Origin: Candidatus Micrarchaeia archaeon
GTDB taxonomy: Archaea; Micrarchaeota; Micrarchaeia; Anstonellales; J096
Assembly (NCBI GenBank): GCA_041500865.1
Contig: JBGQMY010000001.1
Location: 18,834-82,833 of the forward strand
DNA length: 64,000 bases
Direction of reading: 5' to 3'
In this document: in pieces, positions 17,815 through 59,988 of the stretch
Position numbering within the stretch: the stretch's first letter is position 1
Layout of the letters: each line of letters opens with the position of its first letter
Notes under the pieces: model-generated
The model's database searches: none
What the model was told of the DNA's origin: nothing
What the model saw: the letters and a program-made list of their open reading frames with translations, nothing else
Made by a program: the position numbers and the translations under genes

Positions 17815-17816
17815 GG

Positions 17817-35233: not shown

Positions 35234-35893
35234 TCAGGCACCACCCACGCATTCGCGGAAGGATTTCGTGAATGAAACCATTCCCTCTTGCCCTAGGGAC
35301 CTGCGCATGCGGTTAAAGAAAATCAGCAAACCTGCGACTTCGGGATGTTCGGCCCATACTGCCCTGCGCCAAGGCGCCCAGCCTTTTTTGTCCTTTGCTG
35401 TCATGTCGGCGCCGTTTTCAATCAGCAATGCGCATACGTCAATGTGCCCGGCCCAGGCTGCGCAATGGAGCGGCGTGTTGCCATCTTCGTCCTTTGCATT
35501 GACATCCGCTCCTTTGCTTATCAAAATGGCGCAGGCGCGGGCGTTTCCGCCGTTTGCGGCATGGTGCAGGGCCGCACTGCCGTGATTGTCCTTTAGCTCC
35601 ATGTCAGCGCCGTTTTCAATAAGCGCTGAACAGGCTTCCGGGGTGCCGTGCTTTATCGCATAATGCAGCGGCGTCTGGCCGTCCTTGTCCGTAGCATTGA
35701 CATTTGCTCCGTCATGAATGCTTTGCTGGATTCGTTCAATATCTCCATCAAGTGCGCCATTGAACAGCGCATTGGTCCTAAGAAGCTGGCCGTAGTCCTG
35801 CGGCTTTGGGCTTTTTTCCAGCAATGTTTCATCAGGCAGCCTGGGCTTCTGGGGCTGGGAACCGCTTTTTCCTGCTTTCCGGCTTTCCTGCAT
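35234..35893 (-). CDS. ankyrin-repeat protein, array member 1, ending in FTKSFRECVGGA
   Basis: Ankyrin repeats. N-terminal ...QKPRLP. A TATA-like box lies about 27 nt upstream, at roughly 35914..35925. Confidence 0.8.
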   Translation of the reverse strand: MQESRKAGKSGSQPQKPRLPDETLLEKSPKPQDYGQLLRTNALFNGALDGDIERIQQSIHDGANVNATDKDGQTPLHYAIKHGTPEACSALIENGADMELKDNHGSAALHHAANGGNARACAILISKGADVNAKDEDGNTPLHCAAWAGHIDVCALLIENGADMTAKDKKGWAPWRRAVWAEHPEVAGLLIFFNRMRRSLGQEGMVSFTKSFRECVGGA

Positions 35894-35933
35894 GCTTCCG
35901 CTTATTGCAACAGACCTGTTAAAAACCTATCCG

Positions 35934-35954
35934 GCACAGCCAAGTCGGCTGTGC
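35934..35954. promoter_or_regulatory. perfect 8-bp inverted repeat (GCACAGCC-aagtc-GGCTGTGC) between two divergent TATA-like boxes
   Basis: Lies between the promoter of the ankyrin array on the minus strand and the promoter of the 35995 ankyrin gene on the plus strand. Confidence 0.3.
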
Positions 35955-35994
35955 AAAAAGCTTAAAAAACCTTACAGATATATAGTAATTTTTA

Positions 35995-36588
35995 ATGGCC
36001 AATGAAACTTTCGCAAGAGGGGCGGAAAGGCCCGGAAACAGAACGCTTTCTTATGGCAAGGAACCTCTTTTTGACAGCCAAACGAAGCGCTGGCAGGATA
36101 GCGCGCTCCTAGTAGCAGTGCGCAACAGGAGCGTGGAAAGCGCGCTAATGGCAATAGACAAAGGCGCAAGCATAGACACAAAGGACATAAGCGGCAGCAC
36201 TGCGCTGATGATAGCGGCTGAAAGCGGTGATGCGGCTATGTGCAGGGCTCTTCTGTGCAAAGGGGCCGACATTGAGGCAAGGATGATAAACACCGATATC
36301 GGGCTCGGGACGTGCGAAACCGCGCTGATAACTTCGGCAAAGCACGGCAAAAAAGACGTTTGCATCCTTTTGCTGGAAAAAGGCGCAGACCCAAACGCAA
36401 AAGACAGGTACAAGACAACTGCGCTCATGTATGCTGCGCAGTTGGGGCATCCGGACGTTTGCACGGCCCTGCTGGAGCATGGGGCGGACCCGCGCCTAAA
36501 GGACGTGAACTTAATGACTGCGCTCCAGCTTTCAAGGAATGGCGCAAGCGAGGCCATACAGGAATACCTTGCCCATTTTAAAGTGTAA
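35995..36588 (+). CDS. ankyrin-repeat protein without the Cys-containing tail
   Basis: Five ankyrin repeats. Ends in ...EYLAHFKV. Confidence 0.8.
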   Translation: MANETFARGAERPGNRTLSYGKEPLFDSQTKRWQDSALLVAVRNRSVESALMAIDKGASIDTKDISGSTALMIAAESGDAAMCRALLCKGADIEARMINTDIGLGTCETALITSAKHGKKDVCILLLEKGADPNAKDRYKTTALMYAAQLGHPDVCTALLEHGADPRLKDVNLMTALQLSRNGASEAIQEYLAHFKV

Positions 36589-43900: not shown

Positions 43901-45060
43901 GTTTGGAAGTCTATCCACTTTCCCATTGTCCTGTAGCTTCCATTGAAGACTGCATTGTAGTCGTTGAGCGCGTCATTGAACGTGCTCTTTTGCGCGGTGG
44001 ACGCGCTGAGCGACATGAGCACCTCGCCCTTCAGTGGGTCTATCTTCCTAAGGGCGTCCACCGCGCCAGCAGATTTTTGGCGGCCGTAGAAGTCCGGCCT
44101 GAACAGGTATTTCCATTCATCGAAAATGCCTGCTTTGTCCAGATAGTATTTTATCATGCCAAGGTACAGCTTGTTTGCATCCGAAGACATCTTCATGCCC
44201 GAATAGATGTTGTAGGACCTGTCGAAGTTTGCCTTGTATTTCTCGTCCGTGGTGGAGACATATAGCGTGAAATTCTTCATCATGTTGGAAATGTCGTTTA
44301 TCTTGTCCTGGTTCAGCATCCCTGTGTAAAACGAGACCATGGACGTCTTCGTGTCATTGTAGTTTTTTTCTCCGGATTCGTAGGCCTTTCTCATGCCGTC
44401 TATCGCCGTTTCGGCGCTGGCCGCATAATTGAATATCATTGCCGATAGGTCCTTGTCGCCCATGGACTCAACTTTCTTGGAGTACGCCTGCAGGTCGACA
44501 AGTATGTCGTGTATCTTTGCCACTGTGTTCTTGACCCTGGTTGTGTCGGCAGGAGTCGTGCCTTCCTTCGGGAAAAGCTTCTGCGCCGCTTTTTTTGCCA
44601 CCACCTCGGAGGACATGACGTTCGCGAAATCGGGGCCGTATTTTTCCCTTACGGCGTCTGGATTGGAGACGACGCTGTCCCTTGCATACTGGATGGCGTC
44701 AAGGAAGTCTGCCCTTGAGAACCTGCCTGCCTTCTTCACGTACGCTTCCCTGAGCTCAGAATAGACATTCGGCTGGGAGGGCTTGGCCAGCTCCGACGGG
44801 CCGTACTTGTCGGCAAAGGACTTTATCGCCTTGTCCGCCTTTGCCTTGTTTTCGGCGCCGCCTTTCATGACGAAAGATTCAAAGGCCTTGAAGACTGCTT
44901 CCCTGTCCTTCTCAATGCCCTTTTCCACTGCAACAGCGTTCTTGGATGTATCGCCCATGTTTTCACCGGCCGTTTTGAACTTCGCATAGGCCGGCCCTAA
45001 TGCCAGCCCTGCAACAATGCTACTGTATATGATAGCTTTTTTAAAGTCAATGTGAGCCAT
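40903..45060 (-). CDS. large secreted or surface protein, 1385 aa, with a beta-rich C-terminus ending in aromatic residues
   Basis: Signal peptide MAHIDFKKAIIYSSIVAGLALGPAYA. No catalytic motifs recognised. The C-terminal 120 aa are rich in G/Y/W with alternating hydrophobic residues, ending VSVYFKLTF. Confidence 0.55.
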   Translation of the reverse strand: MAHIDFKKAIIYSSIVAGLALGPAYAKFKTAGENMGDTSKNAVAVEKGIEKDREAVFKAFESFVMKGGAENKAKADKAIKSFADKYGPSELAKPSQPNVYSELREAYVKKAGRFSRADFLDAIQYARDSVVSNPDAVREKYGPDFANVMSSEVVAKKAAQKLFPKEGTTPADTTRVKNTVAKIHDILVDLQAYSKKVESMGDKDLSAMIFNYAASAETAIDGMRKAYESGEKNYNDTKTSMVSFYTGMLNQDKINDISNMMKNFTLYVSTTDEKYKANFDRSYNIYSGMKMSSDANKLYLGMIKYYLDKAGIFDEWKYLFRPDFYGRQKSAGAVDALRKIDPLKGEVLMSLSASTAQKSTFNDALNDYNAVFNGSYRTMGKWIDFQTLGDALGISNPVQLGKWISQNYDALSSDKSRFQALKSKVMNYYQGTGGMTEDSLSSKALAIDKAFSIMTLMDVKLLGGALDALEAKGLTDTKTYAGLMENIMTLSTRDPYLIAGYLHYVVPAFAQLSNADTDVQLFFATFGAQLQTRLSKNVFNMTERENMLSRFRAISADLPRIPVANVTHKDLFYDIWNKTRTYESPYYYDVKQSEMTKMGSYFPMLNVPMQYRTLSLMPNQANYHNGYFSWSMPLLMQGAFDIYNRLNAELNPPGNNFRPPVPQMARIERAHVNTLITELNKIFAKRYGNEQYYNDWIGGSMEGGFGAANRYVEVGARGVAKTGAGGGVTTEVTGGKTGDNFIMTHDIDASKVNMGFNVNTATAAGTYEERNMATEAARLFAPVAKDKGDMLTYFTGNWGLSPYDKDSRTKEGWYWVTKGGDAYEVRMGTDTRDKLMNYQFGEANATNVLASLKTYIPDKDAPFNGAAVGFTAGTVAASGLWNQIVLRNGNSLSTVANEQAASLSKSNVFNKDDAVIGTYRRTSIGNEQYNFNIELKYRYVPAEISKSAAVIAVLGGSNVGGLQVKTEKMAGLSGLGGTLVYSGIDETQLLGLQSNMSNFLTNVYGWKRNDAQNTGAFVSGTYMYSMVRDQMGDLEQQGYGMATLIVWAHRFNMLAAGEKVPQWMNGINQTITNAEEQATLNPQEAAIIYKAAIQEVADQLKSKDVQNYALGMGVDGKFYLVGATDLEARSASMRGYLFFSDANQNVKGWLEGITSTLRGTQGEFYPDLFLGGGLKDRFRVLGGPTLMVDQNVSGTAVATRGGSGQLLWKFLRQNDDQSRTAKSDIILGLVGGTKRMNDAELNEWQVIITGTTVEAPTLVEHAATAWYVFADRKRHKLIIAPDTFQTEKDWSVTAGLDRAWVDVNQVGGKLQFHLTYGRYMDARDYIGLGAEYTHTRLPNEWGIGVAGGTGPLPYYSTDIWSWNYMSRQRLNPNNWGVSVYFKLTF

Positions 45061-46622: not shown

Positions 46623-47173
46623 AACTGCTTTTCGCGACGCACAACAAGGGGAAGCTTGCAGAGGCGCGGCAAATCCTTGGCCAGAAGGGGGTTGAGATAG
46701 GGCACCTTGAGGTTGAGTATGGCGAGCCGCGCGGGGAGGACACTTCCGAGATAGCGCGCAAGAGCGCTGAGCAGCTTTATCCGATCGTGAAAAAGCCGCT
46801 TTTCCTTGACGACAGCGGGCTTTTCGTTGATGCGCTGAAGGGATTTCCTGGGCCTTATTCCGCTTTTGTCTATAAAAGAATCGGATATGCCGGCATACTT
46901 AATTTGCTTAGCGGGAATTCCAACAGGAAGGCATATTTCAAGTGCTCAATTGCATATGCTGACGAAGACGGCGTCAAGGTTTTTGACGGGACAGTAAACG
47001 GCGGCATATCAAATGCGCCAAGGGGAGATGACGGATTCGGCTATGACCCTGTTTTCGTGCCTGACGGATTTTCCGAGACGTTTGCTGAGATGGATGACAA
47101 GGAGAAGAACGCGATTTCGCACAGGGGAAAGGCATTGGCCCTGTTCGCGGAATGGGTGGCAAAGAAGGATTAG
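46619..47173 (+). CDS. non-canonical purine NTP pyrophosphatase (Ham1/RdgB/ITPase)
   Basis: FATHNKGK N-terminus, FVPDG, and the SHRG C-terminal motif. ATGA overlap with glyS. Confidence 0.85.
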   Translation: MKLLFATHNKGKLAEARQILGQKGVEIGHLEVEYGEPRGEDTSEIARKSAEQLYPIVKKPLFLDDSGLFVDALKGFPGPYSAFVYKRIGYAGILNLLSGNSNRKAYFKCSIAYADEDGVKVFDGTVNGGISNAPRGDDGFGYDPVFVPDGFSETFAEMDDKEKNAISHRGKALALFAEWVAKKD

Positions 47174-47943
47174 GCGGCGAGGCAATCGCTGAAGGATTTC
47201 ATGAATGGGCTGAATGCTTCATTCCCAACCATTACCTCAAGCAATTTGGACGCAAGGAACTCCATGGGCAAGACATGCCCGCTCAGTATGGCCATGCCCA
47301 ATGGCGTATTGCCTGAATTGCTCCTTATGGCGATATCGGCGCCGTTTTCCATCAGCAGGGCGCAAGTCCTGGTGTCGATGTTGGTTGCGGCATAGTGCAG
47401 TGGCGTCATTCCGGCATAGTCTTTTGAGTTGATGAGCTCTATTACGTTTCCGCCTGCTTTTGCGTATTCTTCTATCAGCAGTTTGCAGATGTCGGTATTT
47501 CCAGACGCTGCGGCACGGTGAAGGGCTGTCTTGCCGGCATTGTCCTTTGCGTTCACGTCCGCTCCCTTTTCAAGCAGTAAAGCGCAGGTCTCGGTATGTC
47601 CGTTCGCTACGGCATACATGAGCGCAGTTGTACCATAATTGCTCTTTGCGTTCACGTCCGCTCCGTTCTTTATCAGCATGGTGCAGGTGTCGGTGTGTCC
47701 GTTCACTGCGGCAAGCATGAGCGCAGTCCAGCCGTCCTTGTCCTTTGCCTCGATGGTTGCGCCTTTCTTGATGAGCCGCTCTATCTCATTGATATTGCTA
47801 TTCTTTGCGGCGCTGATGAGTTCATCATTGAGTTTCTTCTGCGCTTCTTCTGGCACTTTTGGCTTCTCGCTTGGCAAAATATCGGCTTTATGGTTTATTG
47901 GTTTCTTTGTTGTACTCTTTAGGCTCCGCTTCCTTTCCTGCAT
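47170..47943 (-). CDS. ankyrin-repeat protein ending in FMKSFSDCLAA
   Basis: Six ankyrin repeats. The internal start MQERKR is preferred because the upstream extension overlaps the divergent MBL gene and is not protein-like. Confidence 0.75.
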   Translation of the reverse strand: MQERKRSLKSTTKKPINHKADILPSEKPKVPEEAQKKLNDELISAAKNSNINEIERLIKKGATIEAKDKDGWTALMLAAVNGHTDTCTMLIKNGADVNAKSNYGTTALMYAVANGHTETCALLLEKGADVNAKDNAGKTALHRAAASGNTDICKLLIEEYAKAGGNVIELINSKDYAGMTPLHYAATNIDTRTCALLMENGADIAIRSNSGNTPLGMAILSGHVLPMEFLASKLLEVMVGNEAFSPFMKSFSDCLAA

Positions 47944-47994
47944 GCATCCATCGTGCGGCAAAGGGATTAAAATGCTATTGGGCAATGAGATTCC

Positions 47995-48579
47995 ATGGAC
48001 GAAGTCAAGGTTCTTGTTGAAGGCTATGCCAGGAGGATGAAAAACGGCTGGGCGGCAAGCTCCGCAGCTATATTGGTAAGAAGCAGCGGCAAAACGATAA
48101 TCGTTGACCCTGGCTGCAACAGGCAAAGGCTGATGGGCGCGCTGAAAAGGGAAAGGCTCAGGACCGGCGATATTGATTTTGTTTTTCTCACGCACAGCCA
48201 TTTTGACCATTCCATGCTTGCCGGCATATTTGAGAATGCGAAAGTGATTGACTGCGAGGAGATTTTCGACGGCGACATGCAGGTCTCCCATCACGGGGCC
48301 ATACCTGGAACAGGACTGAAAATAATCCAGACGCCGGGCCACACCGACGACCATTGCTCGCTGCTTGCAAACACGGAAAAAGGCGTGTGCGCGATAGCCG
48401 GAGACGTCTTCTGGTGGGAAGAAGGCGAGAGGCAGTCAATTGACATAGGCAAGCCTGACGCCGCGCATCCCAGCGACGTGAAAAAACTTGCAAAAAGCAG
48501 GAAAATGCTGCTGGAAAGGGCGGACTGGGTAATACCGGGCCATGGCGGGCCGTTTAACACAAAGGGACGGCCAGATTGA
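47995..48579 (+). CDS. MBL-fold metallo-hydrolase
   Basis: Metallo-beta-lactamase metal-binding motif LTHSHFDH (HxHxDH) with downstream His and Asp ligands. Confidence 0.75.
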   Translation: MDEVKVLVEGYARRMKNGWAASSAAILVRSSGKTIIVDPGCNRQRLMGALKRERLRTGDIDFVFLTHSHFDHSMLAGIFENAKVIDCEEIFDGDMQVSHHGAIPGTGLKIIQTPGHTDDHCSLLANTEKGVCAIAGDVFWWEEGERQSIDIGKPDAAHPSDVKKLAKSRKMLLERADWVIPGHGGPFNTKGRPD

Positions 48580-48751
48580 AGAGGCTCGCCTTCTTTGACA
48601 GCTTCAAGGGGTGCATTTCAGCGAAGGCACATGCCAAACGATAGTTTCTAAGCAAGGCAGCGCTTGGAGCGCTCCGACGCAGGTATAACCCGCAAAATAG
48701 GGATAAGTTTAAAAATGCTATCCTGCATATAATGTGTCAAGGTGTTGAAAT

Positions 48752-49288
48752 ATGGCAGGACCATGCGAAAAAGCAGCTACTGAGTTGGTTAATGCTCTGT
48801 TCAAGGAGATGCCCGATGCATCCATAAAATCCTACATGGAAACGAAGCTCAACGAGAAATTCGTTGCGCAGTTCAAGTCCATGAAGGAGGATTTCCTCAT
48901 GGAGGTCGTCCCAAAGCTGAACGACGTACAGGAAGACATGAAAGCAATCATAGCCAAGAAGGGCAAGGAGAACGTGAACTACGGCGTCGCAATGCTCATG
49001 TATTATGCGGCAGCATGCAACGTCGGGAAGGACGAAATAAACAGCTTCCTTGTGTCATACGGCAAGGGCGGAAAGGAGCTGCTTGCGAAGTATCTCAGCG
49101 CTTCAGGAAATGCCGCTCTTATTGAGAAAAAGACTGTGTCTGCGATGGAAGTCGCGCTCAGCCTTGAGGAAGCAGTGTCTGAAACTACGTTCAGGGCCTT
49201 CAGCACCGAACTCTACAAATTCGCGGAAAAGGGCAAGAAGGGCGCTGAAACTGAAGGAACGGACGTGCTTTACCACAAAGTAGCGTGA
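48752..49288 (+). CDS. hypothetical helical protein, first gene of the AAA+/VWA operon
   Basis: 178 aa, no motif recognised. TTTAAAAA box at 48708..48715. Confidence 0.45.
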   Translation: MAGPCEKAATELVNALFKEMPDASIKSYMETKLNEKFVAQFKSMKEDFLMEVVPKLNDVQEDMKAIIAKKGKENVNYGVAMLMYYAAACNVGKDEINSFLVSYGKGGKELLAKYLSASGNAALIEKKTVSAMEVALSLEEAVSETTFRAFSTELYKFAEKGKKGAETEGTDVLYHKVA

Positions 49289-49294
49289 TAGCCT

Positions 49295-51925
49295 ATGCCA
49301 CAGGCGACCGTGCAGAGGTTCCCCTCGCTAGAGGAGGGCAAAAAAACCAAGCTGCACGGCGCACTTTCTTCTAAAACCGGAAAGTACGGGGAAATGCTTA
49401 GGGTAATCCCACAGATAAGCACTTTTACGGTAAACAACACCATAAAGATGCACCCCGCGTTCACGTGCAACGCGATGTGCATGTTCCTGGACATGACCAT
49501 GGGCGAGAAGCAGCCCTTTGTCCCCTATCTTGTCGGAAACCCCGGGACGGGCAAGACGTTTGCGGCGGAGATGCTGCTTGACGTAGCCCTAACTAAGATG
49601 AAGGGCGTGTTCTCGTCCCAGGAAGGCACCGAAAAAGGCATCACTGAAACGCTTGCGAAATGCGTGGACAACGGCATGCTGGAGTCCGACTTCAGGCCCG
49701 AAAAATCCAAGGCATTCGTCAAATACTTCGGAAAATCAAACGTGCTTGCTGAAATCGCCTCTGCCATGGCCGACGCGTATGCTGCCTCGCCGCCTGCAAA
49801 GATGGGGCAGATAAAGAGCAGGTTCGAGGAGATGATGATATCGCTCAAGGCGATAGCCAACGCGTCCGGGAAATCAAGGGATGAAATCGCGAAGGAGCTT
49901 GACAAAAGCATAAGCACGGATGTTTACGTTTTGCCTTCGGCGTCCTCCGCAACCGACATAATATCCGAAGAGGCCTATGTCATAAGCTCGTCAGGCATAG
50001 AAAGGGTGGTGAAGCACCCGATAATAAGGATGCTCGCAGAGGCTTACGAGGGAAAGATAAGCACGCTGATAATAGACGAGGCAAGCGAGACGCTGAAGGA
50101 GAAGGCCGCGGCAAGGGTGAAGAACCTCCATCCGCTGATTGACGCGCAGGTCAACGGAAAAACGCTGCTGGTTTCCATAAACCCGGAAAACGTGGACGAG
50201 GAAGGCAGGGACATGCTTGCGCAGCTCGGGTCCGCAGTGGAAAAAAGGATGAAGGAAGGCGGACTATGGGCAGAGGACAACATGGACGACATGAAGGCGC
50301 TGTCAAAGGACATAGGCGCAGCGCTTGAAGGAAAGAGAATCCAGCTGTCCATACCGATGCCCAATACGTCATGCATCATCATGACAGGCAACGTGAGGCA
50401 GGAATACGAGCAGATAGGGCTTACAGGGGCGACTTGGAGAAGGATACAGCCCATAATGTTCTCGTACCTGCCGCCGGAGCACATGGGGAAGTTCCTCAAC
50501 GACCTTAAGGACAGGTACAAGCAGGAGCTAAGCGCCGCGATGGGAAGCGACTTCAATTCCATAGAGGCGGACATGGGCCAGAGGAGGGACGAGTTCGTGA
50601 GGAGGCTTGTTGACGTATACAGGAGCATGTACGACAGCTACGTGGCCGAGCCCGCTAAGTTCGCAAACAGGATGCTGCCTTCGCTCAGGAGCATGGCATA
50701 CGCGCTCAGGTCGTTTGAGAGCTACTACGCAATGTCAAGCATAATAAGGGAGTCCGATGACTTTGACAAGGTGGAGTGCGCGGAAATCTCGCTCAACCTG
50801 ACTTCGCATGGCGGCCAAAGGTTCGTGGAGATGAAGAAGGACAAAAAAGGCCTGAAGGGGGTTCTGCCGAGCCAGCAGAGGTACGGCGAATTCCTGCTGG
50901 CGTCAATGGAGCTCTCGACATACATACCGGTCGGCAGCTTCACCGAGACCAGCGAGAGCAGGAGCGGCGAAAGCGAGATGACGCTCAGGTCAAAGGCAAG
51001 GGAGATATTCGCGGCAAGGGGCCTCAAGGGAGGCAGCACGCAGGAAAGGATGATATCCATAAGGCTCGGAAAAAAGGAATATGTGTATTCGGAGCCGAAC
51101 TACATGTACGTGATGTACGGGCTTGCAAACTCCCTGTCAAGGCAGAGGCTGATGCTGCTTGTCGGGGAAAGCCAGGAGGGAAAGACGACGACTGTTGATT
51201 TCACGCAGGCGTTCCTCAGGGAAAACGGGAAGAGCTTCGGTTTCGACGAAGTGAAATACGTCGGCATAGACGACATAGAGGAGTTCACGCTAAGGACCCC
51301 GAACATAAAAAGGAGGGAACAGGGGACTGAAAGGGCCGTGAAGAAATCCCTGCTCAGGGAAACGGTGGAAGACGCCAACGCAAACCCCGAAACGACGTTC
51401 ATAGTCCGCGTGGACGAAGTAGACAATTTAAGGTTCTCGCAGGAGCTCAATGCGCTGTTCACCAGGGACAGGATAACGATGGGCGGCAAGGCATACAACA
51501 TAGGGAACATCGTAATCATGGGAACGTCCAACATATCCCGGATTATGCTGGACAACTTCGTGAGCAGGGGCGGCATACCCCTTGTCTTCACCGGGTCAAC
51601 GTCAAAGGTTGAATATCCCGGCCAGAACTTCGACATAAGGAACATCTACCTCATGCATGCCGCTATGGAAAGGTCTCTCGGCAGCGCCGGAAAGGCCAAT
51701 GAGATAATGGGGCACCTGCTGAGCGACGCGAACACGGTTGACCAGATATCAAGGATAGACTTTTATGAGATAGCGAAGACGCAGGGCAAGCTTGCATCCA
51801 AGTACATGGCTGCAGTTGAGAAAGGGATGCCGGCAGAGGACTACGTCGGCGCTGTCTCCGCATACATAAGGTCCATCACCCAAACCGACACTGAGCGGGA
51901 GCAGGTGAAGAGGGGGGCGGTCTGA
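49295..51925 (+). CDS. tandem MoxR-type AAA+ ATPase with two AAA+ modules in one polypeptide
   Basis: Module 1: Walker A GNPGTGKT (aa 81-88), Walker B TLIIDEAS (about aa 257), sensor-1 SINPENVDEEG. Module 2: Walker A GESQEGKT (aa 624-631), Walker B FIVRVDEVDN (about aa 703), sensor-1 IMGTSN...LDNF. The NPxxxEG and LD(R/N)F pattern is typical of the MoxR class. Confidence 0.75.
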   Translation: MPQATVQRFPSLEEGKKTKLHGALSSKTGKYGEMLRVIPQISTFTVNNTIKMHPAFTCNAMCMFLDMTMGEKQPFVPYLVGNPGTGKTFAAEMLLDVALTKMKGVFSSQEGTEKGITETLAKCVDNGMLESDFRPEKSKAFVKYFGKSNVLAEIASAMADAYAASPPAKMGQIKSRFEEMMISLKAIANASGKSRDEIAKELDKSISTDVYVLPSASSATDIISEEAYVISSSGIERVVKHPIIRMLAEAYEGKISTLIIDEASETLKEKAAARVKNLHPLIDAQVNGKTLLVSINPENVDEEGRDMLAQLGSAVEKRMKEGGLWAEDNMDDMKALSKDIGAALEGKRIQLSIPMPNTSCIIMTGNVRQEYEQIGLTGATWRRIQPIMFSYLPPEHMGKFLNDLKDRYKQELSAAMGSDFNSIEADMGQRRDEFVRRLVDVYRSMYDSYVAEPAKFANRMLPSLRSMAYALRSFESYYAMSSIIRESDDFDKVECAEISLNLTSHGGQRFVEMKKDKKGLKGVLPSQQRYGEFLLASMELSTYIPVGSFTETSESRSGESEMTLRSKAREIFAARGLKGGSTQERMISIRLGKKEYVYSEPNYMYVMYGLANSLSRQRLMLLVGESQEGKTTTVDFTQAFLRENGKSFGFDEVKYVGIDDIEEFTLRTPNIKRREQGTERAVKKSLLRETVEDANANPETTFIVRVDEVDNLRFSQELNALFTRDRITMGGKAYNIGNIVIMGTSNISRIMLDNFVSRGGIPLVFTGSTSKVEYPGQNFDIRNIYLMHAAMERSLGSAGKANEIMGHLLSDANTVDQISRIDFYEIAKTQGKLASKYMAAVEKGMPAEDYVGAVSAYIRSITQTDTEREQVKRGAV

Positions 51926-52300
51926 ATGGCAAAAATGATTACTGCGGCCGAGGCAAGGCAGGTTATCATGACGCTGGAAGGCGCGGAAAGGTTCGCGCCG
52001 GCCTGGATAGCGTCCGGCTCAAGGAAGAACGTTTCCGGCTTCAGGGACGCATACCAGTTCCTGGCAAAAAGGTTCGCAAAATACCTGGAAGGCAGGTTCG
52101 GCGCGGAAAAGATGGAAAAGGAGGCGTTCTCCCGCCTTTTCACCAAATTCCTCATGCCATTCTGCTCGCCTGAGTTCATGGAAGGGCATGAAAAAAGCCA
52201 GTACAAGGCATGGAAGGCCATTGAAAGGATGCTTGACAGCTGCATGGACGGCATGGACCTGGCCTACGCCATAGGGAACGGCGAGTTCGTGGCGGCTTAG
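51926..52300 (+). CDS. small hypothetical protein between the AAA+ and VWA genes
   Basis: 124 aa, helical. Its start abuts the stop of the AAA+ gene. Confidence 0.45.
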   Translation: MAKMITAAEARQVIMTLEGAERFAPAWIASGSRKNVSGFRDAYQFLAKRFAKYLEGRFGAEKMEKEAFSRLFTKFLMPFCSPEFMEGHEKSQYKAWKAIERMLDSCMDGMDLAYAIGNGEFVAA

Positions 52301-52313
52301 GAGGCGGCTGACC

Positions 52314-55300
52314 ATGGCCCAATCCGCTTTTGACGTGATGAAAGAGGAGCCTACGCAGCGGAAGGGCGGCCCTCGCGAAAGAAAAAGGCTAATGGAATCC
52401 TCAGGCCTTGGCACGGCGGGGATGGAAAAGGGTGTAAGGCTTTTCACCGACTATGGGGCATTCACGGATTTTGCTTCAAGATTCAATGGGGACGTGGTGA
52501 CGGCATACGAGGCCGCGAAGCAGGGCACGGTCGAGGAGGCAGGCAGGATAGCCGAAGACCTGTTTCCGACAAAGGGCAACAGGGCCACGTTCGGGAAAGC
52601 GGTGCGGAAATTCTGCGACGACTCGTTCTCAATGCTGTTCGCGATGGTGCTCATGGAAGGCCAGCTGGACAGGAATTACACGGCCCACGTGGAATCCGCG
52701 CTTTCCCAAAGGGCGAAGAACCTGATGAGCTTCATAAGGGATTTTGAGGACATGAAGAGCCCGGAAAGGATGAGGGAAAGGGTGATTTCAACTATTGGGA
52801 CATTCAAGGACGAGTTTCCCTTTGCATTGATGCAGCAGCTTGACAAGTTCGAGGCAGGGGTAAGGAAAGGGGCTTATGACGACATGCTTGCGCAGATATC
52901 AAAGGCCTACATGGAGACCAGGATGGGGGAGCAAAAGGGGTTTGAGGCGTACTTTTTCATAAATTACAGGGAAAACGCGTTCTTTGACATCATAACGCTT
53001 GCGATGGAGAACTCCGCCATGGGCATGATAAAGAAGGACGACATGCTGGCCATGTTCAGGCGCGAAAGCCCTGAGCAGGTATTCCTGTTTCCCTCGCTTT
53101 TCGTCCCCATATACGGGGCGGACGAGTTCATGAGGCTCAGAGCCGGCAAGGTCGTAGCGGACATTCCGATAGACGACGGCCTGAGAGCCGTGCTCTCGGA
53201 GCAGGAGATGTGGAAGGACATCCCGATAAGGCCGGCAGAGCAGGTAATACCGCCGCTGGGCAACGTCGCGCAGCTCATAAGGGATATGCCGTCCGCTAAC
53301 GTGGACGCGGTCAGCAGGGCAGAGGCCAACACGCTGCCGCCGCAGGAGATGAAAAGCTTCATATTCAGGAGGATGGCCGAAAGGAAGATATCGCCAGTGC
53401 TTGACGTGGTCCCGTCAGGGTGCTCCATAGGCGAAAGGGACAGGATAAGGGCCAATGCCTCCACGAGGACCGTGCAGTACGGCGTAAACGACACCTTCCC
53501 GGAAATGGACATGGGAATCGGCATAAGCATCATGTTCCACCACCTTTCCGACAGGATGAAATTCGTAAACAGGATGGAAAACGCCCTTGGCTACACTGAC
53601 GGCGCAGGCATATACCTGTTCCCGTATTACTCAAGGATGCCGACAAGGGACCTCAATGCGTACCTGCTGTTCAACGTGGGCAGGCACGAGTGGGGCCACA
53701 TATCCATGGGCTCCTTTGAGTACACTGCCGGAAATGTGCCGAAGATAGACCTTTTCGCTCCGCTTGAAAGGGACGCCTCGTATGCCAAAAGGTATGAAGA
53801 AAAGGGAAAGGAGAACATAGCGCAGCTGCAGGAATTCATCAATGGGATCATGCGCTCAGTGGACGCTGAGCTCAGCAAAAGGGAGAACGGCAAGGCAACG
53901 CTCAGGGAGATATACAAGACGATAGACGGCACAATCAAGTCGCACTACAAAAAAGAGGAGCACAGCAAAAACCCCTACATCAAGAGGTTCTACGAGTATT
54001 TCGGGACAGAGCTGTACAGGCACATAGACAACGTGATAGACGACTACAGGATAGACAGGTCGTTCTATGACGGCAAGGGAAGGGACGAGATACTGTATGA
54101 GATGGGCGTGGCTGAAACGGACAAGCTGAGGAAGATTTACAGGGTTTCAACGTATCTCAGGGCCATGAACAGGGCGGTATCTATGCATGAGCAGTTCAAG
54201 GAGGAGCCAAACAAGTCAAATGCCGTGGACACGCTTTTCCTGAGGACGATACTTGATGAAAAGTCTTTCAGCGAACTGGTTGGCCCAAGCGTGGACCCGC
54301 TGTTCAGGGACATTTGCGAGATAGCGATGTCAGAGGTGTACAAGGGGGCGGATACGCCAAGAAGGGTGAACGAGGTCATGTGCGCGTCAATGGAATTCAT
54401 GGCGCTTGCGATGATTTTTGACGACGCCATAAAGCCGCCAAAGGTCGTAAGGCAGAAAAAGAAAGGTGAAGGCGGCGAGAAAGGTGGCGAAAAGGGGGAG
54501 AAGGGCGAGGGAGAACAGCAGGGCGGCACGCCAAAAGAGGACCTTGACAAGGAAAAGGGGGAGAAAGAAAAGGGCGGCAAGGGGGATAAGAAAGGGGACA
54601 AAGGAGATGAAGACGAAGGCCAGGGGGACAGCCTTATTGACAAAGACCAGGACGGAAACGTCAACATCAACAAGGATGACAAGAAGGTAGAAGGAAGGGA
54701 AAAGGAAGTTGAGAATTTAAATGCAGCGGAGAAGCACGGGTACGAGACAATTGAGGTCCGGGCTGAAAAGGTGGAGATGTTCAAGCAGTTCTTCCGCGAC
54801 CTGAGGATAGACAGGATGGTCATCATAACGGAACTCGGCAAGAGGGGCGCAAGGGTTGACGTTGACGAGCTTGTGAAATTCATGTACAGGAAAGGCGCAA
54901 GGGAAGCGACGTTTTTGGAAAAGAAGGTCATGGAAACCGACGTCGGAAGCCACCTGGAGGCAAGGCCCATAGACATATACATAGGCGTTGACACGAGCGG
55001 CAGCATGACCGGCGATTCCGGAAGGATGAAAAACTCCAAGAGGATATCGCTTGAGATGCTTGCAGGCTACAACGAGGTTGCGGCCGAGATGAGGTCCGCC
55101 AACATAAGGCTGCACCTGATATCCGTTGCCACGGAAGGCGACCATATCGCCATAAGGGACTGGGACGCCACAAAGGGCCTGATGGTGGAGAAGAAAGGCG
55201 ACTTCTACTCTATTTCATACAAGTTCAGCGAGATAAACGGGGCCACGGACCTGCCGGCCATGATAACCCAGTTCCAGTCGTTCGTTGAGGAAATAAAGAA

Positions 55301-55691
55301 GAACACGATAGGCGAGATAATCAGGGGCAGGAATGCGCTGAACCCTTCAGTGATGATAATGTACATAACGGATTTCGGGGACAACGCCGGTGACCTGGAA
55401 GGCGTAGTTTCGGCCACAAGGCAATTCGGGACGTTTGCCAGAAAATACAGGGCAGATTCCAAGACTGTCAATTACATCTCCAACGACGCGGGCATAGCCA
55501 CGCTGTTCGTTGTCCCGGACGAGCACAGCGACAGCGACGACATAATGGGCGCGGTTGAAAGGGCGACAAGCGGGGCCGTTGTCAAGTTCACCGGCGAGAA
55601 CGAGAGGGACGTTCTTGACAAGATGAACGCGCTCAGGCCCGTCCTTGAGGGGCTCAGGGCAAGCAACGTGGCTGAGAAGGCTGAAAAGTGA
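52314..55691 (+). CDS. large VWA-domain protein with MIDAS motif, HExxH motif and K/E/G-rich low-complexity linker
   Basis: HEWGH at aa 458-462 (nt 53685..53699). K/E/G-rich linker at about aa 716-800. C-terminal VWA domain with MIDAS motif DTSGS at aa 893-897 (nt 54990..55004). This is the AAA+ partner architecture seen in CobT, ChlD and NorD. Confidence 0.75.
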   Translation: MAQSAFDVMKEEPTQRKGGPRERKRLMESSGLGTAGMEKGVRLFTDYGAFTDFASRFNGDVVTAYEAAKQGTVEEAGRIAEDLFPTKGNRATFGKAVRKFCDDSFSMLFAMVLMEGQLDRNYTAHVESALSQRAKNLMSFIRDFEDMKSPERMRERVISTIGTFKDEFPFALMQQLDKFEAGVRKGAYDDMLAQISKAYMETRMGEQKGFEAYFFINYRENAFFDIITLAMENSAMGMIKKDDMLAMFRRESPEQVFLFPSLFVPIYGADEFMRLRAGKVVADIPIDDGLRAVLSEQEMWKDIPIRPAEQVIPPLGNVAQLIRDMPSANVDAVSRAEANTLPPQEMKSFIFRRMAERKISPVLDVVPSGCSIGERDRIRANASTRTVQYGVNDTFPEMDMGIGISIMFHHLSDRMKFVNRMENALGYTDGAGIYLFPYYSRMPTRDLNAYLLFNVGRHEWGHISMGSFEYTAGNVPKIDLFAPLERDASYAKRYEEKGKENIAQLQEFINGIMRSVDAELSKRENGKATLREIYKTIDGTIKSHYKKEEHSKNPYIKRFYEYFGTELYRHIDNVIDDYRIDRSFYDGKGRDEILYEMGVAETDKLRKIYRVSTYLRAMNRAVSMHEQFKEEPNKSNAVDTLFLRTILDEKSFSELVGPSVDPLFRDICEIAMSEVYKGADTPRRVNEVMCASMEFMALAMIFDDAIKPPKVVRQKKKGEGGEKGGEKGEKGEGEQQGGTPKEDLDKEKGEKEKGGKGDKKGDKGDEDEGQGDSLIDKDQDGNVNINKDDKKVEGREKEVENLNAAEKHGYETIEVRAEKVEMFKQFFRDLRIDRMVIITELGKRGARVDVDELVKFMYRKGAREATFLEKKVMETDVGSHLEARPIDIYIGVDTSGSMTGDSGRMKNSKRISLEMLAGYNEVAAEMRSANIRLHLISVATEGDHIAIRDWDATKGLMVEKKGDFYSISYKFSEINGATDLPAMITQFQSFVEEIKKNTIGEIIRGRNALNPSVMIMYITDFGDNAGDLEGVVSATRQFGTFARKYRADSKTVNYISNDAGIATLFVVPDEHSDSDDIMGAVERATSGAVVKFTGENERDVLDKMNALRPVLEGLRASNVAEKAEK

Positions 55692-56284
55692 TGGCAACCA
55701 GGATACGGCAAGCCAACCAAGGGGGCGGCGGGACAGAGACTGTATTAAATCTTGCGAAGCCTGAGCCAGATAAAAATCCAAATGCTTTTGCATCCAAGCC
55801 GGATACAGACAAAGAGGCGCTTTCGGCAGAGAATATGGATATTCTTACCGACGCGCTTATTTTTGAGATACGGCATGGCGGCATAAAAAACGTAAATTAC
55901 AGGCTTAGTGAAGGAGCCGACCCGAACAGGACAGACAAGGAAGGCATCTTGCCGATGGCAGCGGCAGTTTGCGTAAATAAAATCAATGTATGCAGGCTGT
56001 TGCTGAAAAAAGGGGCGGATGTAGATGGCAAGGACAGGCGCGGCTGGACTGCGCTCATGTATGCCGCCTGGGCCAACAACGCGATGATGTGCAGGTTTTT
56101 GCTGGGCCATGGGGCAGACGCCCTGATAATGGACAAAGAGAAAAATTCAACATACGGCCTGCCGAATGAAAAGGAAACGAAGGCACTGTTGAAGATGTTT
56201 GCATGGAAAAGCAAGGCCCTGAAAAGCCTGCTCAGTGGCAGGATTGGGGCGTTCAAGGAGCATTTTGGGCTCTGCGTTTCTTGA
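55691..56284 (+). CDS. ankyrin-repeat protein translationally coupled to the VWA gene, ending in FKEHFGLCVS
   Basis: TGATG overlap with the VWA stop. The track ORF begins with GTG at 55688. Confidence 0.75.
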   Translation: MATRIRQANQGGGGTETVLNLAKPEPDKNPNAFASKPDTDKEALSAENMDILTDALIFEIRHGGIKNVNYRLSEGADPNRTDKEGILPMAAAVCVNKINVCRLLLKKGADVDGKDRRGWTALMYAAWANNAMMCRFLLGHGADALIMDKEKNSTYGLPNEKETKALLKMFAWKSKALKSLLSGRIGAFKEHFGLCVS

Positions 56285-56414
56285 TAATCTGTATTCTAAG
56301 TAAGAAAATCCTTCCGTCTAAGCGGAAACTACAGCAACATTTATAAAACCTATCATGACATCATCATGATTGTATCGTGACTTCGTCAAGGCGAAATCAT
56401 GACACGGTGTAAGC

Positions 56415-56867
56415 ATGGAAGAAAGGGAATTTAAAGGTTCGCCCGATTGGGAGAACGACATAGAGAAGGAAGCCAAGAAAACGCTCACAAGGCTCAGAGA
56501 GGACCCAGTGATGCTCGGAGTTCTCATGTCCAAGATTCTGGAGGAACGGGAAAACACCAATAGGCTGCTAAAGAACCTGCTTCAAAGGATAGAGCAGCTT
56601 GAATCCAGGACCGTCAAGAACAGCGAGGTACAAGAGATTCGCGAAGCGATGCTGCCGGAAATCGACGAGCAGATTGTGGGATACATAAGGGAGAAGGGAA
56701 AGGCGAGCGCGGAGGACGTACGGGTTAGATTCAATTATAAAGGCACCAATGCGGCCTCCGCGCGGCTGAACAGGCTTTATAGCATCGGCATAGTAGACAA
56801 GAAACAGGCGGGCAAAAGGGTTTATTTCTTTTTGCCGTCATGGCAAGGCGACCAACCCCCCGGTTAG
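56415..56867 (+). CDS. winged-helix DNA-binding protein
   Basis: C-terminal winged-helix pattern (IVGYIREKGKASAEDVRVRFNY...RLNRLYSIGIV). TCATGA repeats lie upstream. Confidence 0.5.
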   Translation: MEEREFKGSPDWENDIEKEAKKTLTRLREDPVMLGVLMSKILEERENTNRLLKNLLQRIEQLESRTVKNSEVQEIREAMLPEIDEQIVGYIREKGKASAEDVRVRFNYKGTNAASARLNRLYSIGIVDKKQAGKRVYFFLPSWQGDQPPG

Positions 56868-56905: not shown

Positions 56906-58393
56906 TCAGCCGAACTCGCTTCCCTTTTCCATCCTTTTCATTGAGAAATCGGATTGGCTTGCCTTCCACCAGTTTTTGTCGTACCTGTCAAACAGCTGCT
57001 CCTCTATCGTCTTTGCGTGGTTTATGGCTTCCAAAACGTGCCTTTTCTCTATCAGGCTGCTTCCTTCTCCTACTGCGCTGTCCCCGGAAAGGCGCACGAT
57101 GCCCGAAAGCTTCCTTAGCCTCAGCGTAAGGGACTTGGGCGCATTGTCCACGTTGTCCGCAATCCTCTTGGCCTCCTTGATTATCTCTTCAACGGCCTCC
57201 CTCGTGGCATGGGGTATCTTCTTGTCCCTTGCCACTTCCTGCGCCACGAACTGCACGAGCTTTGCCCTGCTCTCCGGCGTGTCAGGGACCTTGACGTCAA
57301 GCAAGACCTCGTAGCCTTCCCCCCTTATCCTGCTCCTGAGCGCGGGGTTTATCTCAGATATGTCGGTAACGTTCATTGCGCCTATGAATATGAAGTCGCA
57401 CGGCACGCCGTCCACCCTCACTATGGCACCTGTGCTTGTCGTGTTCCTTCCCAGTATCGGGAAGTTCTTGTCCTGCATCGCGGTAAGTATGCACTTCTGC
57501 AAAGGATAGTCTATGGACGTCAGCTCGTCAATGAAAAGCACGCCCTCGTGCGCCGAATGCACTGCCCCTGGGACGACCCTCATGAACGGCGGGATGCCTA
57601 TCTCCGGATGCCCCCCGTACGGGTCATGCTGTATGTCGCCAAGAAGCTCGCTTTCGCTTGCTCCCGTCGCCTGCACGAACGTGCTCCTGTTTATGGGCAC
57701 AAGGACCTTCTTTTCGTCCTTTATGCTGCTGGACGCCTTTTTCATCTCATCCTGCGTCAGCACCCTTATCTTTCCCTCGAACTGCTCGTAGATGACGATT
57801 TCCTTCTTGCCCAGCGGGTCCCTCTTTTCCGCCTTGACGAACTTCTTCCTTGAAGGCACGTCCCTTTGGGGGGCAATGAGGTCGTTGAACGGGTTTGAGA
57901 AGCTGGCATGCTTGGCCGCGCTGCAGTTCGGGCAGATGCCCAATTCGGGGTTGCTCAGCTCCCCGCAGCGCGAGCACCTGAATCCCAGCTCTTCAGCAAC
58001 GAAGATGGGCGCGTCCTGCGGCTCTATCAGCTTGCCTATTGAGGGCTGCGACGGCGCCTTTGTTGCCACGTCCTCCCTCCTTTCCAGCTTGAGTATGGGC
58101 CTTTCAGGCTTCCCGGCATTGTGCAGCACCGATATCTGCATCTTCGGCATCGGAAGGATTGTTGCCACGGCCCTTGCTATCATGCTTTTGCCTGTGCCCG
58201 GCGGGCCTACGAGGAGAAGATGCCTTTTCTGCATGGCCGAGACTCGCGCGAACTTCACTGCCCTTTCCTGGCCGATAATGCAGAAGAACGGGTCGTCCGG
58301 AACCGGTATCTCCGATGTGTCGCTGTAAGCCTCAACGGATTTCATGAGCTCCTGCTCGACTTTCTCCTTCAGGTGGCTGACGGCTGAAAACAT
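56906..58393 (-). CDS. LonB-like AAA+ ATPase lacking the protease domain, with an inserted Zn-ribbon
   Basis: IIGQERAV...LLLVGPPGTGKSM...ILP matches the archaeal LonB N-terminal module. Inserted CSRCG...CPNCS. Ends after the AAA helical subdomain. No S16 protease Ser-Lys dyad. Confidence 0.65.
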   Translation of the reverse strand: MFSAVSHLKEKVEQELMKSVEAYSDTSEIPVPDDPFFCIIGQERAVKFARVSAMQKRHLLLVGPPGTGKSMIARAVATILPMPKMQISVLHNAGKPERPILKLERREDVATKAPSQPSIGKLIEPQDAPIFVAEELGFRCSRCGELSNPELGICPNCSAAKHASFSNPFNDLIAPQRDVPSRKKFVKAEKRDPLGKKEIVIYEQFEGKIRVLTQDEMKKASSSIKDEKKVLVPINRSTFVQATGASESELLGDIQHDPYGGHPEIGIPPFMRVVPGAVHSAHEGVLFIDELTSIDYPLQKCILTAMQDKNFPILGRNTTSTGAIVRVDGVPCDFIFIGAMNVTDISEINPALRSRIRGEGYEVLLDVKVPDTPESRAKLVQFVAQEVARDKKIPHATREAVEEIIKEAKRIADNVDNAPKSLTLRLRKLSGIVRLSGDSAVGEGSSLIEKRHVLEAINHAKTIEEQLFDRYDKNWWKASQSDFSMKRMEKGSEFG

Positions 58394-58519
58394 ATGGTTT
58401 AAGGTTGCATATACCTGTTTATAACGCTTTGCGCAGTCGGAAAAAGAAAAGCGTTTTTAACCTATGCCAAGAATATATGGTAAGCCTTTTAGCAAAAGGC
58501 TTAAGCGAAAAACGTATGT

Positions 58520-58593
58520 GGGGCCTTGGGGTAACCTGGTTAGCCTGTTGGCTTCGGGAGCCAGAGATCCGAGTTCAAATCTCGGAGGCCCCA
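58520..58593 (+). tRNA. tRNA-Pro (anticodon CGG); coordinates uncertain by about 1 nt
   Basis: Hand-folded. Acceptor GGGGCCT/AGGCCCC, anticodon stem TTGGC/GCCAG with loop TTCGGGA, T-arm CCGAG-TTCAAAT-CTCGG, discriminator A, no CCA. A TTTATAAA box lies immediately downstream. Confidence 0.85.
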
Positions 58594-58626
58594 TTCTTTA
58601 TAAAACGTTTAATGCAAAATAAAGGC

Positions 58627-59187
58627 ATGGCGCAGGAAAGGCATAGGCTTGCTGCTAAGATTACCGAGCAAAAACGGCCCAAACTGGCAGGCAAGAAGCT
58701 GCCGGCAGACAAAGGCATTCAATACGAGAAGAAACAGAAGCGGCTCAACGGACAACTGCTTAAAGTTGCCGGAAAGGGAAATGCTGAAAAGGTGAAGCGC
58801 CTGCTGGAGCTTGGCGCAGACATAAATGCAAAAGACAGCGAGGGCTTTACAGCGCTCATGTTTGCCTTGAACGCGAGACATACCGATATCGCCATGTTCC
58901 TGATAGGATTAGGGGCGGACGTGCATGGAAAGGAAAGAGGCATGACTCCCCTTATGATTGCCGCATCATACGGCTATATAGGCATTTGCGAGCTGCTGAT
59001 TGGAAAAGGCGCGGATATCGGAGCAGAGGATCAGGCACGCCGGACTGCATATGACTGGGCAAAGATAAGGTTTGAGGAAGAAATGGTCGACTTCCTGATA
59101 TATGCGAAGCGTTTGGTGAAAGTGACTGGCAAGGACGGCTTCAGGACATTCCTTTCGGATTTCAGGGCTTGCGCCGGAAGCGCCTAG
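58627..59187 (+). CDS. ankyrin-repeat protein ending in FLSDFRACAGSA
   Basis: The track ORF 58405..59187 runs through the tRNA. The start is taken at MAQERH, about 25 nt downstream of the TTTATAAA box. Confidence 0.7.
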   Translation: MAQERHRLAAKITEQKRPKLAGKKLPADKGIQYEKKQKRLNGQLLKVAGKGNAEKVKRLLELGADINAKDSEGFTALMFALNARHTDIAMFLIGLGADVHGKERGMTPLMIAASYGYIGICELLIGKGADIGAEDQARRTAYDWAKIRFEEEMVDFLIYAKRLVKVTGKDGFRTFLSDFRACAGSA

Positions 59188-59226
59188 TTTTATAAACTCT
59201 TTTCAACATGAATTGAAACGATTGTA

Positions 59227-59988
59227 ATGAAGCTGGCCCGCAGAATAACCAACACTAAAAAGGTCGCTGGCAGCTTAATTTATAGAACAAATGTCCTTGA
59301 CCAGGAAGCGTTAAACAAAAAGCTTTTTGAGACAATAGATAACTTTGGCGGAAGGCCTGAAGTCTCATACTGGATAATGCAGGGCGCAAACATAGAGGCA
59401 AGGAACTCTAAAAAAGAGACACCGCTATTCATGGCAGTGTACCGCGGCGGGCCGGCAATAATAAATCTCCTGCTGGAATGCGGCGCAAATATAGACGCAA
59501 AGGACAAATGGGGCCGGACGCCGCTCATGAATGCAGTAATGCAATCAGACCGCGGCACAGAGGCATGGCTCCTTATAGAAAAGGGGGCGGATGTGCATGC
59601 AAAGGACAAAGGGGGCACGCCCGTCATTTGCTTTGCTGCGCTGTACGGAAGGAACCAAATTGTGTATGACCTCCTCAAAAAAGGCGCTGACATAAACGCA
59701 ACGGACAGGTGGGGCAAGACGCCGCTGATGATTGCAGTAAAGGAAAACAATCTCAAACTTATAGCGATGCTCATAGAGATGGGCGCGGACATAACGATAA
59801 TGGACAATGAAGGAATGACAGTGCTTGACCAAGCCAGAAGGCAGGAAAATGCCGAAAAATTCGGAACACTGCAGATAATATTCCTTGCAGGATTCGGAAA
59901 AGAGACATTCACGGCATTCAGGAAAAGCTTCAGGGAATGCATCGTCAAGGAAAGGGGATACATTTCCGCATCCAGCTACCTTTTATAA
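59227..59988 (+). CDS. ankyrin-repeat protein with FRKSFRECIV near the C-terminus
   Basis: Six ankyrin repeats. Confidence 0.8.
   Translation: MKLARRITNTKKVAGSLIYRTNVLDQEALNKKLFETIDNFGGRPEVSYWIMQGANIEARNSKKETPLFMAVYRGGPAIINLLLECGANIDAKDKWGRTPLMNAVMQSDRGTEAWLLIEKGADVHAKDKGGTPVICFAALYGRNQIVYDLLKKGADINATDRWGKTPLMIAVKENNLKLIAMLIEMGADITIMDNEGMTVLDQARRQENAEKFGTLQIIFLAGFGKETFTAFRKSFRECIVKERGYISASSYLL

Follow-up and report, generated by a model that had tools for sequence, protein, structure and literature searches.

We analyzed a 64,000-nucleotide stretch of the genome of a tiny, symbiotic-type Candidatus Micrarchaeia archaeon (contig JBGQMY010000001.1, positions 18,834 to 82,833; hereafter the window). 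It contains a four-gene chromosomal cassette of DPANN-type archaea at positions 48752–55691 of its plus strand, in which a small protein, a tandem AAA+ ATPase, a second small protein, and a large protein joining an HExxH motif to a von Willebrand factor A (VWA) domain are encoded in succession. The cassette is an archaeal variation on the AAA+/VWA theme, very rare and conserved over deep divergence, and it is remotely related to the smaller DUF2201 architecture. Our favoured explanation, to which we assign a probability of roughly 0.55, is that the four genes encode an ATP-driven protein remodelling and processing complex.

An open reading frame (ORF) scan returned five plus-strand ORFs at 48752–56284, matching all those described earlier: gene 1 (48752–49288, 178 aa), gene 2, the tandem ATPase (49295–51925, 876 aa), gene 3 (51926–52300, 124 aa), gene 4, the HExxH–VWA protein (52314–55691, 1125 aa), and an ankyrin-repeat gene (55691–56284; 197 aa from its ATG, or 198 aa from a GTG at 55688). 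Genes 1–4 are separated by 6, 0, and 13 nt. The abutment of the gene 2 stop and gene 3 start at 51925/51926 and the TGATG overlap between the gene 4 TGA (55689–55691) and the ankyrin-gene ATG (55691–55693) are both present, as the preliminary description of this DNA had reported. A 172-nt spacer precedes gene 1, and two TATA-like A/T boxes on the plus strand, read directly as TTTAAAAAT at 48708–48716 and ATATAAT at about 48727–48733, lie 20–45 nt before the first ATG and probably represent the putative archaeal promoter of the cassette. Genes 1–4 are real genes; their ratios of nonsynonymous to synonymous substitution (dN/dS) with orthologues are 0.15–0.34 overall.

The archaeal setting is evident from the window itself, which encodes an intein-containing RtcB, ProRS, and Ham1, and from its syntenic relatives, in which CdvB-type genes are also seen. 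Two relatives from reference genomes are Candidatus Micrarchaeia/Micrarchaeota metagenome-assembled genomes (kingdom Nanobdellati, DPANN group), and the loci L018–L023 are known by their archaeal gene content.

The cassette is rare, and its gene order is deeply conserved. A word-indexed search of 5.8 billion proteins with the 1125-aa protein returned only five close relatives, and when 1.84 billion representative proteins were scanned exhaustively with a HMMER profile, 16 matched, of which roughly twelve are full-length (1100–1330 aa). The same order was read in eleven related loci with the upstream part on the contig: a small protein, an ATPase of about 870–950 aa, a protein of about 100–125 aa, and an HExxH–VWA protein of about 1100–1330 aa. 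Close relatives (L001, L003, L004, and L006) share 69–90% identity; L016, which L017 duplicates, stands at 47–52%, and L005, which is cut by a contig end and covers the first half of L016, is consistent with it over that part. The large proteins of the distant loci L018, L019, L021, and L023 retain 17–26% identity. At L002/L015 the contig ends within the ATPase gene, and the order agrees as far as it is covered; at L018 it likewise ends inside the ATPase gene, leaving the ATPase N-terminus and gene 1 off the contig. L020 lacks the small third gene. In every locus with both ends on the contig, the ATPase gene adjoins the VWA gene or is separated from it by one small gene. Every locus recovered holds one cassette copy, and purifying selection prevails throughout, with no hypervariable part. 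The flanks differ by lineage and consist of archaeal housekeeping genes, including a ribosomal protein operon and genes for thermosome, LSM, ATP synthase D, tRNA synthetases, and geranylgeranyl reductase. Conservation of the order down to 17–26% identity bears out the earlier proposal of an ATPase paired with a VWA partner and dedicated small proteins.

The conserved unit ends with gene 4. The preliminary description had proposed a five-gene operon with a coupled ankyrin gene; its neighbourhood holds up for genes 1–4, the ankyrin gene being absent at the corresponding site in the closest relatives L001, L002, L003, L004, and L006. The fifth ORF does encode an ankyrin protein (Ank_2, E 1.7e-15), and its overlap with gene 4 suggests co-expression with the cassette in this genome. 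DNA alignment with the two closest relatives resolves it as a clean indel of about 590 nt, running from the end of the VWA gene to the conserved promoter region ahead of the following gene. The ankyrin gene is a recent, lineage-specific local insertion outside the conserved cassette. The ankyrin genes near the L002, L005, and L016 cassettes were considered as orthologues and rejected, since their identity of only about 30% is repeat-level similarity. Those near L002, L005/L016, L020, and L023 differ in position and strand, and such recurrent neighbours in repeat-rich genomes are not evidence of coupling.

The 876-aa product of gene 2 carries two complete P-loop AAA+ modules, both confirmed by motifs as the preliminary description had claimed. 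Module 1 has a Walker A motif GNPGTGKT at residues 81–88 (nt 49535–49558) and a Walker B motif LIIDEASE at residues 258–265 (nt 50066–50089); alignment adds a sensor-1 TGN at residues 364–366 and the invariant Arg383. Two large helical inserts lie within this module. Module 2 has Walker A GESQEGKT at residues 624–631 (nt 51164–51187) and Walker B VRVDEVDN at residues 704–711 (nt 51404–51427), together with an aligned sensor-1 TSN at residues 744–746 and the LDNFxSR motif (LDNFVSR, residues 752–758). Across eight ATPases aligned down to 23% identity, Walker A, the Walker B Glu, the sensor-1 Asn, and the Arg residues are invariant in both modules. All general hallmarks of AAA+ proteins are present: Walker A, Walker B with its catalytic Glu, sensor-1, arginine finger, and an alpha/beta core with a helical lid. 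An AlphaFold2 (AF2) model reached a mean predicted local distance difference test (pLDDT) of 63.5 and a predicted template modelling score (pTM) of 0.61, and a Foldseek search with this model ranked dynein first (E 9.6e-5, TM 0.27). We read gene 2 as encoding a true tandem AAA+ ATPase in which the modules would pack like ring neighbours, and the model supports the AAA+ fold at moderate confidence.

The family assignment of this ATPase differs from the earlier "MoxR-like" label. In Pfam searches of the native protein, AAA_22 gave the best match to module 2 (40 bits, cut-off 27), and module 1 gave matches at the level of Walker A only. With the inserts removed, AAA_22 led for module-1 constructs from three of five members (25–34 bits) and generic AAA for another; for three divergent module-2 constructs, generic AAA or AAA_14 came out on top. 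AAA_5 stayed below its cut-off of 22, at 15.2 bits for the full protein and 12.9–19.1 bits for three of the five insert-free module-1 constructs, and was unlisted for the other two. AAA_3 and bpMoxR were never listed by Pfam profile search for the ATPase or its module constructs. The MoxR annotation is not supported by these profiles and should be dropped. In sequence and profile searches against PDB, the products of genes 1–4 gave only noise or generic P-loop matches.

The 1125-aa product of gene 4 had no match in Pfam, NCBIfam, PADLOC, PHROG, or PDB sequence searches, and its architecture was read from motifs, composition, and profiles within 52314–55691. An N-terminal region of about 380 aa without a detectable family is followed by a TDG...HEWGH core, in which the HExxH motif occupies residues 458–462 (nt 53685–53699), and by an NxxxDDYRID motif at nt 54030–54056. 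A low-complexity linker rich in K, E, G, and D (about nt 54450–54713) separates the helical middle part from the VWA domain in all members. The VWA domain lies at about nt 54951–55643, supported by motif and profile, and contains DTSGS at residues 893–897 (nt 54990–55004), part of its metal ion-dependent adhesion site (MIDAS).

These motifs are intact over great divergence. Across 11 large-protein sequences at 17–48% identity, T428-D-G430, N448, H458-E-x-x-H462, and G466 are invariant, as are N573-x3-D577-x3-D581, the GGTD and TDFG motifs, and the five MIDAS residues D893, S895, S897, T978, and D1020, the latter in the right order and spacing. The HExxH and MIDAS assignments of the preliminary description are upheld. 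Direct family matches were faint: VWA and VWA_2 in Pfam matched three of the 11 members at E 4e-4 to 1e-3 and the window protein not at all, and the VWA-region profile of the archaeal family matched PDB VWA structures below threshold, including the midasin MIDAS domain 6qt8 (E 0.9).

A more distant comparison connects this protein to an existing family. Pfam DUF2201_N (PF13203) is a putative metallopeptidase family, and DUF2201 (PF09967) is VWA-like. A short consensus sequence served as probe to retrieve members carrying both from plasmid and phage DNA; Pfam confirmed them (PF13203, 122–176 bits; PF09967, 75–85 bits), and seven of them were aligned as a reference. In hhalign, the zincin region of the archaeal family matched this reference with Prob 80%, E 1.5e-5, and score 46, and the VWA region with Prob 92%, E 5.1e-7, and score 57 over 80 columns, from DxSGS through GGGTD. 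Controls with 30 column-shuffled references and the reversed reference gave a maximum score of 19 and a maximum Prob of 0.4%. The zincin-like and VWA-like cores stand in the same order as in the DUF2201 pair, and the profile–profile matches identify the two as remote homologues. A 573-aa protein from the exhaustive search, P0026, matches both families and forms a bridge between them. The Pfam models PF13203 and PF09967 themselves matched neither the window protein (E up to 1) nor the 11 family members (E up to 0.1). By eye, N573-x3-D577-x3-D581 (NIxEDYRID) resembles the WNxAxDxxIN motif of DUF2201_N, but hhalign left the two unaligned; the archaeal motif lies 115–150 residues past HExxH, whereas the second motif of DUF2201_N lies about 20 residues past it.

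Because of this profile–profile match, the HExxH–VWA fusion, which the preliminary description had listed as possibly novel, is an already-known architecture. The likeness extends to domain and gene order: in both groups the zincin-like TDG...HExxH precedes a VWA-like domain that bears the DxSGS and GGGT(D) motifs, and the gene lies beside an ATPase gene, upstream and often with a small gene in between; for the DUF2201 reference proteins, this neighbour belongs to the AAA/MoxR family. What is new in the archaeal cassette is the threefold size, the N-terminal extension, the long insert after HExxH, the charged linker, the tandem ATPase, and the archaeal chromosomal setting. Examples of the DUF2201 architecture beside an ATPase gene are the phage N4 gp25-like proteins and the Synechocystis Sll7028/Sll7029-type pairs. 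The reference proteins measure 370–440 aa, whereas the archaeal proteins measure 1100–1330 aa. The extra length is made up of the N-terminal extension of about 380 aa, the 115–150-aa insert between HExxH and N..D..ID, the charged linker, and inserts within the VWA domain. The partner ATPase is two-module in the cassette and resembles the MoxR-annotated partners of DUF2201 genes at Walker A alone, the only part that hhalign aligned (Prob 26–42%). A literature search covering DUF2201, DPANN with von Willebrand, and Micrarchaeota with VWA or ankyrin returned no description of the cassette, and the same search found no functional study of DUF2201.

The hosts also differ. N4-like phages (639 phage records) and plasmids (87 records) commonly carry DUF2201_N+DUF2201 genes beside ATPase genes, and the archaeal cassettes lie on chromosomes. 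The abundance of the smaller pairs on mobile DNA raises an alternative, namely a mobile-element or viral module, domesticated or resident, that would amount to an enlarged AAA + DUF2201 pair serving element replication or assembly. In the same direction, PMC7159879 cites a report that a MoxR/VWA pair helps the tail of an archaeal virus to develop. Against this stand searches of mobile DNA, which found no relative of the 876-aa or 1125-aa protein among IMG/VR viral contigs, none of the 1125-aa protein in the GenBank phage collection, and none of the 876-aa protein among PLSDB plasmids. No capsid, terminase, or replication gene occurs in any 20-kb neighbourhood, and integrases are represented only by a faint match to Phage_int_SAM_4, some 4 kb from the L020 cassette. 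Host-gene synteny is kept across relatives, and the GC content of the cassette region (0.52–0.55) equals that of the remaining window. We consider a mobile or viral origin of this kind very unlikely.

A defence role, which the preliminary description had entertained, was weighed on similar evidence. Kaur, Burroughs, Iyer, and Aravind proposed MoxR–vWA ternary conflict systems in 2020; these are bacterial and enriched in multicellular taxa; metallopeptidases are rare effectors in them, and peptidase domains can fuse to the vWA component (PMC7159879). An NTP-dependent anti-virus system on this plan would use the AAA+/VWA pair as a threshold switch that frees a protease effector upon infection. 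The cassette shares the underlying grammar of AAA+, vWA, and peptidase, and, like the ternary systems, joins an AAA+/vWA pair to small or adaptor components; the DUF2201 pairs to which it is related occur often on plasmids and in phages, and some loci have, a few kb away, genes for a ParE toxin and for a GT4 protein that weakly matches a conflict-system glycosyltransferase family. It differs, however, in lacking VMAP, iSTAND, FtsH, and beta-propeller components, bpMoxR, and effector variability. The PADLOC defence library returned only 19-bit noise (best E 1.9e-4). A single copy per locus in the same order across very deep divergence, purifying selection without a hypervariable part, and neighbours encoding ribosomal proteins, tRNA synthetases, thermosome, ATP synthase, and LSM all argue against a conflict system, as does the lack of viral and plasmid relatives in the searches of mobile DNA described above. 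We regard the defence reading as improbable.

The best-studied AAA+/VWA pairs offer a further alternative. ChlI/ChlD, CobS/CobT, RavA–ViaA, NorQ–NorD, CbbQ–CbbO, and CoxD–CoxE likewise couple an AAA+ protein to a VWA/MIDAS partner, and ChlD and CobT carry an acidic or charged linker ahead of the VWA domain. A chaperone of the CobS/CobT, ChlI/ChlD, NorQ/NorD, CbbQ/CbbO, or CoxD/CoxE type that inserts a metal cofactor into a metalloenzyme or helps it mature would fit the charged linker of gene 4, which in one distant member shows a faint CobT match (E 0.046), and a Mg_chelatase-family AAA+ gene lies convergently downstream of the cassette in closer relatives. That gene, however, is gone from the neighbourhood of the cassette in the distant loci. 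The cassette also differs from the chelatase and chaperone pairs in its tandem ATPase and zincin-like domain, and in having no client metalloenzyme gene linked to it in any locus; to our knowledge, none of the CobS/CobT, ChlI/ChlD, NorQ/NorD, CbbQ/CbbO, and CoxD/CoxE pairs has been described with an invariant HExxH zincin-like domain. The ATPase falls short of the AAA_5 and AAA_3 models typical of such pairs, and neither large protein matched the CobST, ChlID, NorQD, CbbQO, CoxDE, or RavA–ViaA families in Pfam or NCBIfam. Since no profile search placed either protein in a CobST, ChlID, NorQD, or CbbQO family, the objection that the preliminary description had anticipated to its own proposal did not materialize. 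We judge a maturation chaperone for a metalloenzyme to be improbable as well.

The evidence on gene order, motif integrity, and selection is most consistent with the ATP-driven remodelling and processing complex. In such a complex, the 876-aa protein would be a ring motor, possibly a trimer with six modules or a hexamer with two tiers. Its adaptor would be the 1125-aa protein, acting through a C-terminal VWA/MIDAS domain that hangs on the flexible charged linker, an arrangement shared with ChlD, CobT, and midasin. MIDAS sites usually grip an acidic residue of the partner protein or bind to the ATPase ring. The zincin-like domain (TDG...HExxH...NxxxDxxID) would then cleave or hold the engaged client, and the two small proteins may be dedicated cofactors or clients.

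Several points weigh against this reading. The ATPase model is mediocre, with the nucleotide-binding loops as its worst parts, and the Walker B Asp of module 2 is replaced by Asn in two lineages. The AF2 model of the 1125-aa protein, built from a 5-sequence alignment, failed (pLDDT 36, pTM 0.25), so the VWA and zincin folds rest on motifs and on profile alignments of 60–80 columns. The nearest family, DUF2201, has no function in the literature and therefore provides no functional anchor.

Comparison with midasin (Rea1), the AAA+ protein of eukaryotic ribosome assembly, yields a more specific version of the remodelling complex. Both systems have several AAA+ modules per chain and a charged low-complexity segment right before the MIDAS domain. 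Midasin, however, joins six AAA_5 modules, a long linker, a D/E-rich region, and the MIDAS domain in one polypeptide, whereas the cassette has two modules per chain and places the MIDAS domain on a separate polypeptide. Midasin lacks a zincin-like domain and has clients with ubiquitin-like (UBL) domains; the cassette has a zincin-like domain and no linked UBL-domain client. Unlike those of midasin, the cassette ATPase modules fall short of AAA_5, similarity scores are low, and the ATPase model is modest. Two modules, a separate MIDAS chain, and no AAA_5 match set the cassette apart from midasin proper, and the likeness is one of architecture only. A "split midasin-like" machine of DPANN archaea, in which the AAA+ motor and a separate tethered MIDAS protein extract a protein factor that the zincin clips, is a speculative proposal that we hold to be rather unlikely. 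It would act in the assembly of a core cellular complex or in the maturation of neighbouring solenoid (ankyrin/HEAT) proteins. If true, it would be an unrecognised lineage-specific housekeeping chaperone–protease class and would give a first functional entry point to the widespread DUF2201 superfamily.

The two small proteins are recognisable chiefly through their position, at 18–22% identity. The gene 1 product had no family match in domain-library searches and is probably helical, to judge from its sequence; it has a conserved N-terminal P-C-E and a C-terminal LYxK and is always encoded first in the cassette, with positional orthologues in all loci (dN/dS 0.24–0.34). The gene 3 product, also without a detectable family and probably helical, has a single invariant Gly close to its C-terminus, and its positional orthologues occur in all loci except L020 (dN/dS 0.19–0.28). 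A botulinum-toxin match to gene 3 (E 0.007, over a helical segment) was judged to be chance. The idea that gene 3 encodes a ubiquitin-like modifier processed at the C-terminal Gly was dropped, as the sequence looks helical, unlike a beta-grasp protein, and few sequences support the alignment.

Beyond the cassette, the window is rich in ankyrin genes, holding about 13 ankyrin ORFs in 64 kb, both immediate neighbours of the cassette among them. They lie at 2852–3316, 12807–13199, 31025–36585 (seven ORFs), 47173–48435, 55691–56284, 58381–59184, and 59212–59985. Those at 31–36.6 kb form a dense cluster, and such an expansion is unusual for a small archaeal genome; it may relate to host interaction. 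Solenoid-repeat neighbours recur near cassettes in different forms: at L019, the place of ankyrin genes around the cassette is taken by four large genes with HEAT repeats (1471–3726 and 12998–21066). At L018 (5789–8636), the cassette lies directly upstream of the ribosomal protein operon S17-L14-L24-S4e-L5-S14-S8 in the same orientation, with a gap of about 160 nt.

Downstream of the ankyrin gene, a plus-strand ORF at 56415–56867 (150 aa) is a candidate winged-helix-like regulator with weak winged helix-turn-helix/MarR-type matches and its own TATA-like box, TTTATAAAA. It is present in L001–L004 and L006 and absent in L016, and since it neighbours the cassette only in the closer relatives, it is probably not a core part of it. 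The spacer before it (56290–56414) is near-invariant among the window, L002, and L001 despite a dS of 0.3–0.5 in the flanking genes. This spacer contains TTTATAAAA, several ATCATGA repeats, and a small inverted repeat, TTCCGTCTAAGCGGAA, and probably serves as an operator, promoter, and/or terminator. The Mg_chelatase/MCM-like AAA+ gene convergent to the cassette occupies 56906–58393 on the minus strand (495 aa, with a LonB-type lid) and keeps its place in all closer relatives.

On the upstream side, a 394-aa ankyrin ORF (47170–48354, minus strand) and a 194-aa metallo-beta-lactamase-fold ORF (47995–48579, plus strand) overlap by about 360 nt on opposite strands, and one of their starts probably lies further in. 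The RtcB tRNA-splicing ligase gene at 38107–40899 (plus strand) is split by an intein with a LAGLIDADG homing-endonuclease domain. Two very large minus-strand ORFs, at 40903–45060 (1385 aa) and 61136–63625 (829 aa), had no Pfam match, and their position is kept in related loci.

Pairs of AAA+ and VWA proteins drive the assembly of ribosomes, chelatases, Rubisco, nitric-oxide reductase, and viral tails. Among them, the branch that joins a zincin to a VWA-like domain, represented by DUF2201, is common in phages and plasmids and has no known function, and the archaeal cassette offers a useful comparison for zincin–MIDAS adaptors. For annotation, the MoxR label should not be given to the ATPase, and the ankyrin gene belongs outside the system. 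With its intact motifs and the purifying selection acting on it, in genomes reduced to little more than the essentials, the cassette is a good candidate for a DPANN lineage-specific core machine.

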